From a virus: a DNA stretch of 5,181 nucleotides. The translations under genes were made by a program, and so were the position numbers. Position 1 is the first letter of the stretch; each line of letters begins with the position of its first letter. Location of the stretch: the UHGV virus genome UHGV-0205084. The stretch is one strand, 5' to 3'. This document shows positions 1,479 to 5,181 of this stretch, piece after piece. Under the pieces are notes generated by a model. The model saw only the letters and a list, made by a program, of their open reading frames with translations, made no database searches and was not told the DNA's origin.

Positions 1479-3389
1479 ATGCCAAACCTAACTAAGTATT
1501 CACTTGACCACGAAGTTCGGTCGAGTTTTGAAATGGGTCAACTCATCCCATTTTTGTGCCAAGAGGTTGTACCAGGCGATAAGTATCGCGTGCAGTCTAG
1601 TACGCTCGTGCGTCTCCAGCCTATGTTATCCCCGCTGATGCATAGACTTGATTACTATCAAAGGTACTATTATGTGCCTTATCGTCTTCTCATACCTAAC
1701 TATGAGCAGTTACTGACAGATCCCGATAGTGGTAACACTGTTCCAGGTATGGATAAGTATCTACAATATACTGCGCATACCCTAAAGGATTTGTTCCTTG
1801 AAAAACCTCTGTTGGAGTATTTTGGTCTTGCATCGTCATTAGATGGTACTCACCCCGATAATGTGATTAAGGATCTTAATGCTACTCCTCTACTTGCTTA
1901 TTACCTTATATATAATCATTATTATATGAGGTCAGACCTTGATAAGCGTTATATTGACCAATTGCGCCCCGAAAACTTTACTAGTGCTGAGTTGCGCAAA
2001 TACATTGGTAATGTGATGTACGTTAATGAAGGACTTGATTATTTTACTTCTGCTAAGACTTCCACGCAGTACGGCAATATGGTACAGTTGGATATGGACG
2101 GCAATAATACCATTACTGTTCCTGAGATGCGTCTCGCTGAGCGTTTGCAGTCTTTCCGAGAGAGGTTGTTGAGAGTTGGTGGTAAGTACGTGAATTATAT
2201 TAAGGAGTTCTTCGGAGTCGAACCCCTTGACGCGAGAGTGCAAATACCTAAGTATCTAGGTGGTGACTCTTACGTGCTTAATGTGTCAGATGTTGACCAG
2301 ACAGCTCCCTCTGAACTTGGTTCAGTTGGTGAGAGTTATGGTAAGTCAGTGTCTGTTAATCGTACGGGTCAGATTCAATATGACGTTTACGAGCATGGTC
2401 TTATTATTGGTCTTCACTTTGTGCGCCCCCGTCCGTCAAATATAGGTGGCTGTCCTAAGCTATTTACTAGACGTACGTATTTTGATTTCTTCAATCCTCA
2501 CTTCTCCGCCTTGGGTTATCAAGAGATACAGGCGCGTGAACTTGATGTTGCACGACCAAAAGATGAAGCTTTCGGGTATGTACCGAGGTATGACGAGTAT
2601 CGTTATGGTAATGATATAGTTTCAGGTGATTTCAAGCGGTCTCTTGATTATTGGCATATGTCTAGAGATATAAGTAAGGAGAAGCTATCAGTTGACTTTG
2701 TGACTTGTCACCCAGATAATCGTGTGTTCTCGTTTCAAAATTCTAGGCCAGATCTTTGTCGTATTCAGATGACTGGTAATATCATTGGTGTTGGTGCTGT
2801 TGGTACTTCGAAGTTCTTGCTAGATGGTTATGCTTGGATTCCAAAGAGTGCTTTGACGCAAGGTTCTGATATCATGTTCTCTATTTCTAAGGAATCTATA
2901 GCTAATGATTCTAAGTTATTATTTATGGGTAAACTCTCATCTTTTCAAGATGTTGATAGTGTTAGTTTAGTTCCTGGTCGAGTTGATCAAGACTCATTAT
3001 TTTTTAATACCTGGACTAAAGGTACTGATGTGTCTAATCGGTTTGATTTGGATAGAAATACTATCATTGAGATTCACGAAGATGATTATTCAAGTAGAGC
3101 TTCATTAGGTTCTTTATCTTATATTTCCTTTGGTGGTGAGACTTATCCGTTTTTGCTTGATGTTCGTAAGACTATACAGTTAACTAATGCGATGGATTCC
3201 TCTTCTATTGCTATTTTTAATGATGGCGAGAATGGTTTTAAGCAATTAGTTTCTTTTCCTCTAGGGTTTTATACTCTTATGCCTTATGATACTGCTAAGC
3301 CTATGGATAATCACGTATTGTCTGTGACTTACAATAATGTGGACGTATTGCGTCCTCTAGCTCGTTATGACGGTAATGTGTTAAGATGA
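1479..3389 (+). CDS. Major capsid protein VP1 (phiX174 F-like) of Microviridae
   Basis: The 636-aa ORF has an N-terminal region (...FEMGQLIPFLCQEVVPGDKYRVQSSTLVRLQPMLSPLMHRLDYYQRYYYVPYRLL, aa 17-71, with the PGD at aa 32-34) that matches the conserved N-terminal beta-strand region of gokushovirus VP1. Size and position (immediately upstream of VP2) fit as well. Confidence 0.88.
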   Translation: MPNLTKYSLDHEVRSSFEMGQLIPFLCQEVVPGDKYRVQSSTLVRLQPMLSPLMHRLDYYQRYYYVPYRLLIPNYEQLLTDPDSGNTVPGMDKYLQYTAHTLKDLFLEKPLLEYFGLASSLDGTHPDNVIKDLNATPLLAYYLIYNHYYMRSDLDKRYIDQLRPENFTSAELRKYIGNVMYVNEGLDYFTSAKTSTQYGNMVQLDMDGNNTITVPEMRLAERLQSFRERLLRVGGKYVNYIKEFFGVEPLDARVQIPKYLGGDSYVLNVSDVDQTAPSELGSVGESYGKSVSVNRTGQIQYDVYEHGLIIGLHFVRPRPSNIGGCPKLFTRRTYFDFFNPHFSALGYQEIQARELDVARPKDEAFGYVPRYDEYRYGNDIVSGDFKRSLDYWHMSRDISKEKLSVDFVTCHPDNRVFSFQNSRPDLCRIQMTGNIIGVGAVGTSKFLLDGYAWIPKSALTQGSDIMFSISKESIANDSKLLFMGKLSSFQDVDSVSLVPGRVDQDSLFFNTWTKGTDVSNRFDLDRNTIIEIHEDDYSSRASLGSLSYISFGGETYPFLLDVRKTIQLTNAMDSSSIAIFNDGENGFKQLVSFPLGFYTLMPYDTAKPMDNHVLSVTYNNVDVLRPLARYDGNVLR

Positions 3390-3395
3390 TAAGTT

Positions 3396-4430
3396 ATGGA
3401 TCCCGTTACTATTGCAGGTCTTGCAGGTGCAGGCGCTAGTCTTGTCGGAGGTCTTATAAATAATGCTTGGTCTGATGCTCGTACAGAGAAACAGTACAGG
3501 CAAATGAATGAGATGCAAGATAAGATGAACGCATATAATGCGCCCGTTGCTCAAATGGCTCGCTTGCGTGCGGCTGGATTGAATCCTAATCTTGTGTATG
3601 CGAATGGTGGTGCTGTTATGCAGTCCGCTGTCGGTAATGCTCCGAACCCTCCTAACTCTGCCCCGATTGACACTCAGGGAGTGTTACAGATGGTGCAGAC
3701 GATTGTCGGTGGTATGCTAGAAAAGGATAAGATACAAGCTCAGAAAGATATGCAGTCAGAGCAGATTACTGCTAATAAGGATTTGCAGACTGAGAAGATT
3801 ACTGCCGATAAGGATATGCAGTCTACTCAGATTGGTGCAACTAAGGATTTACAGACTGAGCAGATTACTGCTAATAAAGAGATGCAAAAAACTCAGATTG
3901 ATTCAACTGAAAAGATTGCTTCTGAGAATCGTGCTGAAAACGCTCGTCAGTTTGATTTGTCTTTTGAACAGCAGAAGCGTGTTGATGCTATGCGTTTATC
4001 TATTGATAGGAGTTTGGCAAATTCTCAAATAGCTTTGCATTCTTCTCAAATTGAGATTAATCGTTTGTCTGCTAATTTGTCTCGCCAGCTTGAACCTTTT
4101 TTGGTTGATAAGGCTAAGTTAGATTCTTTGTCTTCTCAGTTTTCTTTTAGTAATGAAAAGTTAGAGACTTTTCTTTCTCGTCCGTATGAGATTTCAGTTA
4201 CTGATTTAGAGAACGCTTATAAAGATGCTGGTTTGTCTGTTCCTAGTGCTTTTGGATTGTCTCAAATGGTAGATTATCATAATGAGGCCGTTAAAGCTTG
4301 GAATCAAGAAGTTAAAACTAATAGGACAAAACTTTCTGATGATGAGTTTTATTCTGGTTGGATGCATCTTTGGAATGCTATTTCTGCTCCTACTCAGATG
4401 GCTACTTCTTTGCTTTTCAAGAAGAAGTAG
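3396..4430 (+). CDS. Minor capsid / DNA pilot protein VP2 (phiX174 H-like)
   Basis: The N-terminus is Gly/Ala-rich and hydrophobic (AGLAGAGASLVGGLI, aa 7-21). The hallmark AQMARLRAAGLNPNLVY (AAGLNP at aa 59-64, nt 3570-3587) is found in Microviridae VP2 proteins. A central tandem 11-aa repeat predicted to form a coiled coil resembles the phiX174 H tube domain. The ORF sits immediately downstream of VP1. Confidence 0.8.
   Translation: MDPVTIAGLAGAGASLVGGLINNAWSDARTEKQYRQMNEMQDKMNAYNAPVAQMARLRAAGLNPNLVYANGGAVMQSAVGNAPNPPNSAPIDTQGVLQMVQTIVGGMLEKDKIQAQKDMQSEQITANKDLQTEKITADKDMQSTQIGATKDLQTEQITANKEMQKTQIDSTEKIASENRAENARQFDLSFEQQKRVDAMRLSIDRSLANSQIALHSSQIEINRLSANLSRQLEPFLVDKAKLDSLSSQFSFSNEKLETFLSRPYEISVTDLENAYKDAGLSVPSAFGLSQMVDYHNEAVKAWNQEVKTNRTKLSDDEFYSGWMHLWNAISAPTQMATSLLFKKK
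3747..3911 (+). repeat. Five tandem 33-nt repeats (hendecad 11-aa units DMQSEQITANK / DLQTEKITADK / DMQSTQIGATK / DLQTEQITANK / EMQKTQIDSTE) inside VP2, with degenerate flanking copies extending to about 3723..3941
   Basis: Direct reading. Units are 3747-3779, 3780-3812, 3813-3845, 3846-3878 and 3879-3911. Unit 1 and unit 4 are 28/33 nt identical. Odd and even units alternate (gatatgcagtc... versus gatttgcagactgag...), which suggests a duplicated 66-nt higher-order unit. Confidence 0.9.
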
Positions 4431-4603: not shown

Positions 4604-4880
4604 GTATGTGGCTCGTGTGCCACAGAGTGTAGTGTCTGACACTTTACCGAATCAGACTGTAGACTTGTCTGTACTTGTTAAGCAGTTAATGGACGGTCAA
4701 GCACTTAATGTTGGATTATCATTGTCTGAGGACACTTCGGACACTCTAGACACTCCAGATATTACTAAGTATGATTTCCGTCATATGACAGTATCTGATG
4801 TAGATAATCTATTGTCTAAGGTTCAGCCGGTGCAGGTTGATGTGCCAGCTGAGACCGGTACGGCTCCCGTAGCCGATTGA
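4584..4880 (+). CDS. Putative internal scaffolding protein (VP3-like), acidic, 98 aa from ATG 4584. The track's longer version starts at TTG 4518
   Basis: Position after VP2 matches the gokushovirus VP1-VP2-VP3 order. It is acidic (D/E-rich: SEDTSDTLDTPDITKYDF...), as scaffolding proteins are. The first in-frame ATG is at 4584 (MEKRSYKYVARV...), whereas the track start at 4518 is a TTG. I do not recognise any sequence motif, so the call rests on position and composition only. Confidence 0.4.
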   Translation: MEKRSYKYVARVPQSVVSDTLPNQTVDLSVLVKQLMDGQALNVGLSLSEDTSDTLDTPDITKYDFRHMTVSDVDNLLSKVQPVQVDVPAETGTAPVAD

Positions 4881-4890
4881 TATTAATGGG
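4875..4890 (+). promoter_or_regulatory. Candidate (+)-strand replication origin nick site: gattgatattaatggg contains TTGATATTAAT, identical to the core of the phiX174 gpA cleavage site (CAACTTG^ATATTAATAAC)
   Basis: Exact 11-nt identity at 4877-4887 to the phiX174 origin as I remember it. It overlaps the VP3-like stop codon (TGA 4878-4880) and sits at the 5' edge of the structured intergenic region. The predicted nick would fall between G4879 and A4880. Confidence 0.4.
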
Positions 4891-4989
4891 TGCGGGGGCT
4901 GATGGCTTGTCCATTGCCCCCCTCACCTCTTTTGAGGTGGGGGCAATGGCATTTTGCCGAACCAGTCCTTCGGACTGCCCCCCCGCCCG
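4888..4989 (+). repeat. GC-rich island with nested inverted repeats built from four homopolymer tracts: G5 (4894-4898), C6 (4917-4922), G5 (4939-4943) and C7 (4978-4984). An outer imperfect stem (gggtgcgggggc 4888-4899 with gcccccccgcccg 4977-4989) encloses the 4911-4949 hairpin and a 6-bp hairpin cagtcc-ttc-ggactg (4963-4977)
   Basis: Direct reading. About 10 of 12 positions of the outer arms are complementary. The G and C tracts can also pair in the alternative register G5(4894) with C6(4917) and G5(4939) with C7(4978). Confidence 0.6.
4911..4956 (+). terminator. GC-rich hairpin (16 bp with a 3-nt bulge, TTTT loop) followed by cATTTTg. Possible intrinsic terminator after the VP3-like gene and/or ssDNA structural element
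   Basis: Left arm ccattgcccccctcacctc (4911-4929), loop tttt (4930-4933), right arm gaggtgggggcaatgg (4934-4949), T-run 4952-4955. Pairing was verified base by base. Confidence 0.45.
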
Positions 4990-5009
4990 TTAATTATCAC
5001 GAGAGAGCA

Positions 5010-5040
5010 GGCGATTACTCTTACTTGACATGTAATCGCC
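5010..5040 (+). promoter_or_regulatory. Perfect 9-bp inverted repeat ggcgattac / gtaatcgcc with a 13-nt loop tcttacttgacat carrying a consensus -35 hexamer TTGACA (5025-5030). Possible Rep promoter or operator element
   Basis: Arms are 5010-5018 and 5032-5040, verified base by base. No well-spaced TATAAT follows; the nearest -10-like hexamers are tgtaat at 5031-5036 (wrong spacing) and tatatt at 5061-5066. The promoter role is therefore tentative. Confidence 0.3.
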
Positions 5041-5181
5041 AAGTGACACCACGATACAAATATATTGTGGTGTTGTCTCTCTAAATAATTTGTAGTACAT
5101 TTGTGCCAGAGCTAGGTAACAATTCATTCTTAAATTTATTGATGCCTGCTTTTGGACTAAACGTATAACTCATTCTGACAA

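Follow-up and report, generated by a model that had tools for sequence, protein, structure and literature searches.

A branched GC-rich hairpin at the end of a microvirus operon, a candidate terminator that may double as a complementary-strand origin

The window analysed here, the whole 5181-nt stretch of the virus genome UHGV-0205084, is a complete-looking Microviridae genome in which every gene lies on the + strand. Directly after the last gene of its operon is a GC-rich, non-coding island (4882-4994) that folds into a branched hairpin and ends 16 nt before a putative nick hairpin (5010-5040). We infer, tentatively and with a probability of roughly 0.45, that the island is an elaborate form of terminator hairpin at the end of the operon and also acts as the origin of complementary, or (-)-strand, synthesis. 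It would most likely have descended from an intrinsic terminator of the GC-hairpin-plus-T-run kind in the same slot.

The original prediction, made from the letters of the window, described a GC-rich island of G5/C6/G5/C7 tracts set within an outer stem. The tracts are where it placed them: G5 (G1) at 4894-4898, C6 (C1) at 4917-4922, G5 (G2) at 4939-4943 and C7 (C2) at 4978-4984. The GC content is 0.66 in 4888-4989 and 0.59 in 4882-4994, compared with 0.41 for the whole window. Folded as single-stranded DNA (ssDNA), as had been proposed, positions 4870-5045 form nested hairpins in an outer stem with a minimum free energy (MFE) of -43.6 kcal/mol, compared with -22.2 +/- 3.0 for shuffled sequences (z = -7.1; 0 of 200 shuffles match it). 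When 120-nt windows were slid around the whole circle and folded as ssDNA, the island reached -33.3 kcal/mol against a mean of -10.4 (standard deviation 4.6), a distance of about 5 standard deviations. Because all 15 of the most stable windows overlap it, the island is the only strongly structured GC-rich segment of the genome, which agrees with what had been claimed. Judged by energy alone, the minus strand has an equally good fold.

The MFE fold is a three-way junction of helices P1, P2/P3 and P4 on the + strand, and RNA and DNA parameters agree on it. The outer stem, P1, joins a 5' arm ATTAATGGGTGCGGGGGC (4882..4899, including G1; seen as an inverted repeat and in MFE folds) to a 3' arm GCCCCCCCGCCCGTTAAT (4977..4994, including C2; inverted repeat and alignment). 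It has 18 positions and 17 bp and is longer than the coordinates first given for it. In the window two of its pairs are wobbles, T4887·G4989 and T4891·G4985. The C4893·C4983 mismatch is unpaired in every variant, a pyrimidine·C mismatch that is conserved and never repaired. The P1 'loop' is 77 nt long and encloses two hairpins. P2, identified from an inverted repeat and the alignment, pairs CCATTG (4911..4916), whose partner in the alternative fold is GATGG (4901-4905), with CAATGG (4944..4949). It stacks on P3 (4917..4943), which is nearly invariant in the alignment and consists of C1, the hairpin ACCTC-TTTT-GAGGT (4925-4938) and G2, that is, C5:G5 plus the hairpin with a small C/TC bulge. 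P4 is the hairpin CAGTCC-TTC-GGACTG (4963..4977), supported by MFE folds and compensatory pairs; its last base, G4977, has two possible partners, C4963 in P4 or C4899 in P1. Alignments place a single-stranded junction between P2 and P4 (4956..4962), which reads GCCGAAC in the window and GAATA(A)G in most relatives.

We collected 17 distinct island variants, falling into about six sequence types, from GenBank, IMG/VR, JGI, ENA and Logan contigs. Pattern scans of IMG/VR gave only 3 relatives, and most variants came from Logan/ENA look-ups; many of the 17 are Porphyromonas prophages. In the alignment, 92% of cells fall in standard pairs of the nested structure and 13 pairs are changed on both sides. 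The covariation score is 0.247, compared with 0.135 +/- 0.011 for shuffles (0 of 500 reach it) and with 0.02-0.11 when the partners are slid. Six of the compensatory pairs are in P1, where 97% of cells are paired, and two are in P4 (T-A to G-C and, in the variant L126, C-G to T-A). RNAalifold, applied to the whole intergenic region, recovered P1-P4 independently. The register of P2 shifts between types and is therefore not captured by alignment columns. Its helix is nonetheless perfect in each type (CCATTG/CAATGG, CCTTTG/CAAAGG, GATGCCT/AGGCATC, (TTA)CACGGCT/AGCCGTG(TAA) and GATGCC/GGCATC), and it is replaced by three unrelated complementary sequences across types while the enclosed P3 hairpin is invariant. 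The original prediction had staked itself on related genomes keeping a structured GC-rich element at this position with stem-preserving covariation, and both are found.

The one-sided changes in the alignment are all transitions via G·T (T·G to T-A, T·G to C-G and G-C to G·T), and G·T wobbles occur at four P1 positions. Because these would be A·C mismatches on the opposite strand, the selected fold is that of the + strand. Since the packaged DNA is the + strand and the mRNA has its sense, strand alone cannot decide between a role as DNA and one as RNA.

A covariance model of the island gives one match in each genome of the clade, no homologues in 94 distant microvirus/host loci and no extra copies in host flanks. 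Given this distribution, the branched design is specific to a clade with Rep at least 76% identical. A search of a phage database with the island likewise returned close relatives only. Several metagenome contigs of relatives (L124, L125, L129 and L137) stop within the island, either in the G/C tracts or in the loop of P3. Short-read assemblies thus seem to be interrupted by the hairpin cluster, and databases are likely to under-represent the element.

Of all blocks in the intergenic region, P3 together with its tracts is the most conserved: its pairwise identity is 0.94-0.97, compared with 0.93 in the origin hairpin and 0.83 in both the promoter block and the phage attachment site, attP. P3 shows no compensatory change, while P1 and P2 vary freely, and its invariance looks like sequence-specific recognition. 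This conservation, together with the restriction of the element to one clade, would also fit a sequence-specific binding site for a protein of the phage or the host with some other role (replication termination, packaging or prophage control) or a neutral palindromic insertion, both of which we consider very unlikely. Packaging in the Microviridae is generally known to be coupled to Rep-driven synthesis and to need no separate signal, and recognition by Rep would more plausibly go through the family-wide TGACAC box beside the nick hairpin. A neutral insertion would not preserve compensatory changes, and the host flanks hold no further copies.

The tracts had further been predicted to pair in two mutually exclusive registers, a layout read as a structural switch. 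Both registers are indeed feasible. The nested register is the MFE; in the adjacent register G1 pairs with C1 alongside an inner GATGG/CCATT helix, G2 pairs with C2 around P4, and the same outer stem closes a four-way junction. The adjacent form is less stable in the window by 8.5 kcal/mol with RNA parameters and by 4.8 with DNA parameters. Across types A-D it costs 4.5-14 kcal/mol (RNA) or 5-11 kcal/mol (DNA), and in L118 the cost is 9-25 kcal/mol. It arises first in 5'-to-3' prefix folding. Tract-length polymorphism, which had been expected, is seen between genomes, and the lengths follow the nested partners: in 17 of 17 variants C2 equals G1 + 2 (5/7, 6/8, 7/9) and C1 equals G2 + 1 (6/5, 7/6). 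The same holds within types (L006 compared with L003, L127 with the window, L008 with L001 and L005 with L004). Across the 17 variants no relation was found between the lengths of G1 and C1 or of G2 and C2.

The sole coordinated substitution that supports the adjacent register is the step from type A to type B, where three positions change together (GATGG to GAAGG, CCATTG to CCTTTG and CAATGG to CAAAGG) and both alternative helices are preserved. The three changes together count as one evolutionary event. The inner helix of the adjacent form is reduced to 3 bp plus wobbles in types C and D; nested P2 helices are strong in types C, D and E, and the adjacent fold is weak in types C-E. The nested fold is clearly maintained by selection, and the data point only weakly to a functional switch. 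A regulated switch between the nested three-way and the adjacent four-way form, controlling origin/Rep read-through or access to the DNA, would draw on the retained outer stem and the limited cost of the adjacent form in types A-D, on its early appearance during folding and on the A/B substitution. With tract lengths that track the nested partners alone, an inner helix eroded in types C and D, the high cost in L118, a single supporting event and no ligand or factor indicated by any result, we regard such a switch as highly improbable.

The position of the island argues for termination. It is a GC-rich hairpin on the sense strand, directly 3' of the last stop of the operon. Relatives with 55-60% Rep identity have plain hairpins and T-runs straight after their last open reading frame (ORF): GGGGGGC-TTCT-GCCCCCCCC (G6C-TTCT-GC8) followed by T7 in L023, TCCCTCCTC-TCTC-GAGGAGGGA followed by TTTTTATT (T5) in L115, and a hairpin followed by T9 in L021. 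Many more distant microviruses have a G/C-tract hairpin and a T-run immediately upstream of the origin hairpin. A sense-strand T-run is the mark of an intrinsic terminator, so this slot is a terminator slot, which lends weight to the suggestion of the original prediction that the island may also terminate the structural operon. In the terminator scan no other convincing terminator for the operon was found, the lone nearby call (4861-4875) lying inside the last ORF, upstream of its stop.

The intrinsic terminators of L023, L115 and a marine group (AAAGCCTCC-AGAAAT-GGGGGCTTTTT) occupy the same slot and strand as the island and share with it stems of G/C tracts, A/T-rich flanks (ATTAAT ... GTTAATTAT around P1) and a similar use of G·T pairs. 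They are simple hairpins with 3-6-nt loops and runs of T5-T9, whereas the island has two extra conserved hairpins in its loop, a conserved internal mismatch and a broken T-rich tail. Past the GC core the window reads GTTAATTAT, with T at 5 of 8 bases from +1 and a longest run of 2; the corresponding tract is GTTTTAATG in type C and GTTTTTATT in type D, and part of it pairs with the A/T-rich 5' flank. The share of G·T pairs is 12.7% in P1 (10 distinct versions), 9.3% in the canonical terminators of relatives (n = 7) and 3.2% in origin stems (n = 22), which must act as DNA and in which such pairs are mostly terminal. For P1 compared with origin stems, Fisher p = 6e-4, with samples that are phylogenetically non-independent. 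By this measure P1 seems to resemble the terminators of relatives rather than DNA-level origin stems. The core of P1 is similar to the terminator of L023 and P3 to that of L115, which suggests that the island arose by nesting or elaborating hairpins of the terminator type found in relatives.

Termination, or stabilisation of the 3' end, could be all that the island does, with the inner hairpins merely keeping an expanded loop closed and no role at the DNA level. In one variant of this account two ancestral hairpins may have nested, an outer G6/C8 of the L023 type and an inner CCCTCCTC/GAGGAGGG of the L115 type. Positional homology with canonical terminators, the two resemblances just described and a P1 as rich in wobbles as terminators are would all follow, and selection for loop closure alone predicts the covariation of P2 and P4. 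We nevertheless find this account somewhat unlikely. It leaves unexplained why P3 is nearly invariant in its stem, its bulge and its loop and why the P1 mismatch and the GAATA junction are conserved; the T-run is weak in most types; and the phage would still require a start for its (-) strand, for which its genome holds no better candidate. The branched design and near-invariant P3 suggest more than a terminator needs: branching is unneeded for termination, the T-tail is mostly broken, the mismatch stays unrepaired and P3 is the most conserved part, which together point to a role beyond termination.

Every microvirus requires a start signal for its complementary strand. The island is the only outstanding ssDNA fold of this genome, it is stable and specific to the + strand by its fold statistics, its top-ranked window and its + strand-only wobbles, and it lies in non-coding DNA just upstream of the nick site that we assign from a phiX-like motif. 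The claim in the original prediction that it is a complementary-strand origin gains from this intergenic, strand-specific position upstream of the likely (+)-origin hairpin and loses from the T-run terminators that hold the slot in relatives. The same terminators weigh on the possibility that the island is a complementary-strand origin only, its folded (+) ssDNA recruiting a primosome, primase or RNA polymerase while termination is incidental or absent. That account would explain why the most stable ssDNA fold of the genome is + strand-specific, multi-hairpin and branched, conserved in P3 at the level of sequence and placed immediately upstream of the (+)-origin hairpin, and such a role has been proposed by others, without proof, for hairpins between the last gene and Rep (PMC9865509). 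We judge it distinctly unlikely, given that a T-run is meaningless for DNA priming, that internal G·T pairs are frequent in P1 and not in DNA-level origin stems, and that motifs of known priming sites are absent, TAGCGT (the CS-6 motif of the ssoA origin) being restricted to type E. The other ssoA motif, RS_B, is likewise not conserved in the island.

A bolder form of the origin idea, which we think unlikely, would make the island the complementary-strand origin of a temperate microvirus of the Bacteroidota, built as a mobile three-way/four-way junction, in which interchangeable G/C tracts mimic a branched replication intermediate and load the host primosome, the near-invariant P3 is the recognition site and the RNA fold doubles as an atypical branched terminator. 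If this were so, the island would be the first ori(-) to be defined beyond the phiX/G4 phages of enterobacteria.

We return to the preferred reading of a terminator that also primes the second strand. In the transcript, P2/P3 and P4 would fold earliest. P1 would close once its 3' arm emerges, with the U-rich GUUAAUUAU next, and closed P1 and this U-rich stretch would end the operon mRNA or protect its 3' end. In the incoming (+) ssDNA genome, the very stable fold would keep clear of single-strand-binding protein and offer a branched duplex to the host priming machinery, where complementary-strand synthesis could start. Both roles would then reside in one element, as in the T_F/ori(-) hairpin of phiX174.

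Several results weigh against this reading. The 17 variants represent only about six types, which leaves a modest number of independent covariation events. Types A, B, E, F and G lack a contiguous T-run after P1. The island is not called by the terminator scan, since it is not a simple hairpin: instead of one stem closed by a loop of about 3-8 nt it has the 77-nt P1 'loop' with its two hairpins, and branched terminators are unusual. On the side of the origin, no similarity was found between the island and rolling-circle plasmid DNA or any known priming site, and the island matches no Rfam family. The conservation of the P3 sequence is explained by neither the terminator nor the origin role. 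With plain terminators in this slot in more distant microviruses, the case for termination, which the original prediction had treated as secondary, is no weaker than that for an origin.

In phiX174, the hairpin between genes F and G is the Rho-independent terminator T_F and the complementary-strand origin in one (bioRxiv 10.64898/2026.07.25.740675). Like the island, this PriA n' hairpin is an intergenic + strand hairpin directly after a structural gene in a microvirus. It is a single imperfect hairpin, whereas the island is a three-way junction with G/C homopolymer tracts, and it lies far from ori(+), whereas the island is immediately upstream of the putative ori(+) hairpin. No sequence similarity between the two was found, the host of the island belongs to the Bacteroidota and the function of the island is one that we infer. 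The original prediction had offered the phiX174 n' site and the G4 oric hairpins as examples; the phiX174 hairpin does hold both roles, but these remain analogies only.

The single-strand origins (sso) of rolling-circle plasmids and the (-) origin of phage Ff fold into several hairpins over a long, strand-specific stretch; they lie just upstream of the nick site and are therefore displaced last. The island is similar to ssoA, ssoT, ssoU, ssoW and hairpins B and C of Ff in being intergenic, multi-hairpin and upstream of the nick site. It differs from them in that RS_B and CS-6 are not among its conserved features and its stems are without recognised promoter-like hexamers, and the hosts belong to different phyla. 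Closer to the Microviridae studied here, the reekeekee- and roodoodoo-microviruses have conserved intergenic hairpins with compensatory substitutions, for which (-)-strand initiation was suggested and not certified (PMC9865509). These too lie between the last gene and Rep and are conserved with compensatory changes, but they come from other clades, have other sequences and are simple and unbranched, with lengths of 13-64 nt.

Several other readings of the island were tried and rejected. A scan of the window against Rfam at E <= 10 gave only Pab91, with E = 9.7 and 18 bits compared with a gathering score of 71, which leaves no known RNA family or ribozyme. ARAGORN finds no tRNA or tmRNA. A hammerhead (CTGATG ... 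GAA around the three-way junction) was considered; its core strings are unconserved in types B-E, and there is no match to an Rfam ribozyme. An attachment (att) site of the XerCD/dif type used by Bacteroidota microvirus prophages has its core at 5154-5176, and the island is wholly inside the right end of the prophage. ORFs 4877-4993 and 4890-5084 run across the island; tract indels and 5-nt length differences break every frame. The second of these, of 64 codons (421-615 in L001), corresponds to the hypothetical protein UYL88490.1 in OP549878, an annotation that is probably spurious. A G-quadruplex or i-motif would have only three G-runs or C-runs per strand to draw on. The sequence TTGATATTAAT (4877-4887), which overlaps the stop codon, equals 11 nt of the phiX174 origin core; relatives differ here (TTGATTTTAAC, CTAATTTAAAC), and the match is probably due to chance. 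A second outer stem around the origin hairpin (4992-5006/5076-5090) is not recovered by RNAalifold.

The genes of the window are all on the + strand and begin with Rep (1-939; PF23343). A small ORF of 42 amino acids (942-1070) and an ORF of 132 amino acids (1077-1475) follow, then the major capsid protein (1479-3389; Phage_F, E = 4e-56), a pilot-like protein (3396-4430) and the last ORF of the operon (4566/4518-4880), a homologue of which is an annotated coding sequence in OP549878. Apart from Rep and the capsid protein, these features come from the ORF list. The TGA stop codon of the last ORF is at 4878..4880, and the island begins 1 nt further on. The stretch 4881-5181 is the sole sizeable non-coding part of the genome and leads into the Rep ATG at position 1. 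Along it lie, in order, the branched hairpin, a phiX-like origin hairpin, a Bacteroidota-type promoter and a dif-like attP.

Five GenBank microviruses from human samples are 80-87% identical to the window. A prophage in an uncultured Porphyromonas genome (L025, NZ_UQDF01000014.1) has a Rep 97% identical to that of the window, and another (L024) lies in a 59-kb scaffold with Bacteroidota-type neighbours. Together with L038, L040, L116, L126 and L130-L135, these are integrated prophages in Porphyromonas or Bacteroidota-like contigs, with Rep 83-97% identical. They occupy several chromosomal sites with the common core ACTAAAC.TA.A.CTCATTCT. Since the close relatives are prophages in such contigs, the phage of the window is temperate and its host is Porphyromonas, an assignment that agrees with the Bacteroidetes proviruses described by Krupovic and Forterre (PMC3091885).

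The likely (+)-origin hairpin (5010..5049, + strand) has a covarying stem GGCGATTAC/GTAATCGCC (5010-5040) around the loop ACTTGACAT (5023-5031) and is followed by AAGTGACAC. A freely varying stem with the loop ACTTGATAT (ACTTGAYAT) and a wrTGACAC box is present on the Rep strand at 37 of 84 distant microvirus loci, with 22 distinct stems that covary and in which almost all pairs are Watson-Crick. Besides the window, a hairpin of the ACTTGAYAT type occurs in L021, L023, L028, L030, L031, L042-L113 and L115. The loop motif matches the origin core CAACTTG|ATATTAATAAC of phiX174 and G4, whose 30-mer CAACTTGATATTAATAAC... sits in gene A; the phiX174 origin is cleaved between G4305 and A4306 (bioRxiv 10.64898/2026.07.25.740675). 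On these sequence grounds the 5010-5040 hairpin is probably the (+)-strand origin, as its counterparts would be in a very wide range of non-phiX microviruses. In the literature we found nothing on the island, nor on the ACTTGATAT motif in the Microviridae.

A second hairpin (5046-5073) is swapped between otherwise close relatives, in which it reads ACACCACGATACAAATAYATTGTGGTGT, ACACTACAAATATATTTGTATCGTGT or CACGATGTATTTGTATCGTG. Its versions form a mosaic with respect to island type, a pattern suggesting that parts of the intergenic region have recombined. An invariant promoter-like block (5072-5103) has a -7 box of the Bacteroidota type, TACATTTG, at 5096-5103 and TTG 20 nt upstream. The dif-like att core ACTAAAC.TA.A.CTCATTCT (5154-5176) is found in attL and attR of L024 and L025. 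Rep starts 6 nt past this core, and the promoter-like block is upstream of it. In the prophages (L024 6850-6900 and 12030-12085; L025 6460-6500 and 11655-11685) the promoter-like block is at the right end and directed into host DNA, and the left end has Rep and the whole operon behind host sequence, such that integration alone may separate the operon from its promoter. A repressor gene was not observed in this clade.

RNAalifold also reports a conserved helix with some compensatory changes between 5106-5118 and 5145-5155 (CCAGAAGC.../...GCTTTTGG), the 3' arm of which reaches into the att core from the left. The helix could be a structure of the mRNA leader or a DNA fold that presents attP. In the host flank just outside attL of L024 (6815-6850) there are tracts GGGGGGAATTCCCC ... 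CCCCCCCCC, which on the other strand read G9 ... C6 then TTTTT, possibly a host terminator or the remnant of an earlier integration.

Few phages are more abundant in the gut, oral and vaginal viromes than the Microviridae of hosts other than enterobacteria, and the island bears on how these start their second strand and end their single operon. The clade offers a compact, well-delimited intergenic region with a candidate defined to the base pair, and its natural variants amount to a mutational series. If the island is a terminator only, the result is one of routine annotation; its interest would be greater if the origin role or the isomerisation of the junction is true. If the dual role is true, an arrangement known from phiX174 would also be found in a temperate lineage that is distant from it and infects another bacterial phylum.

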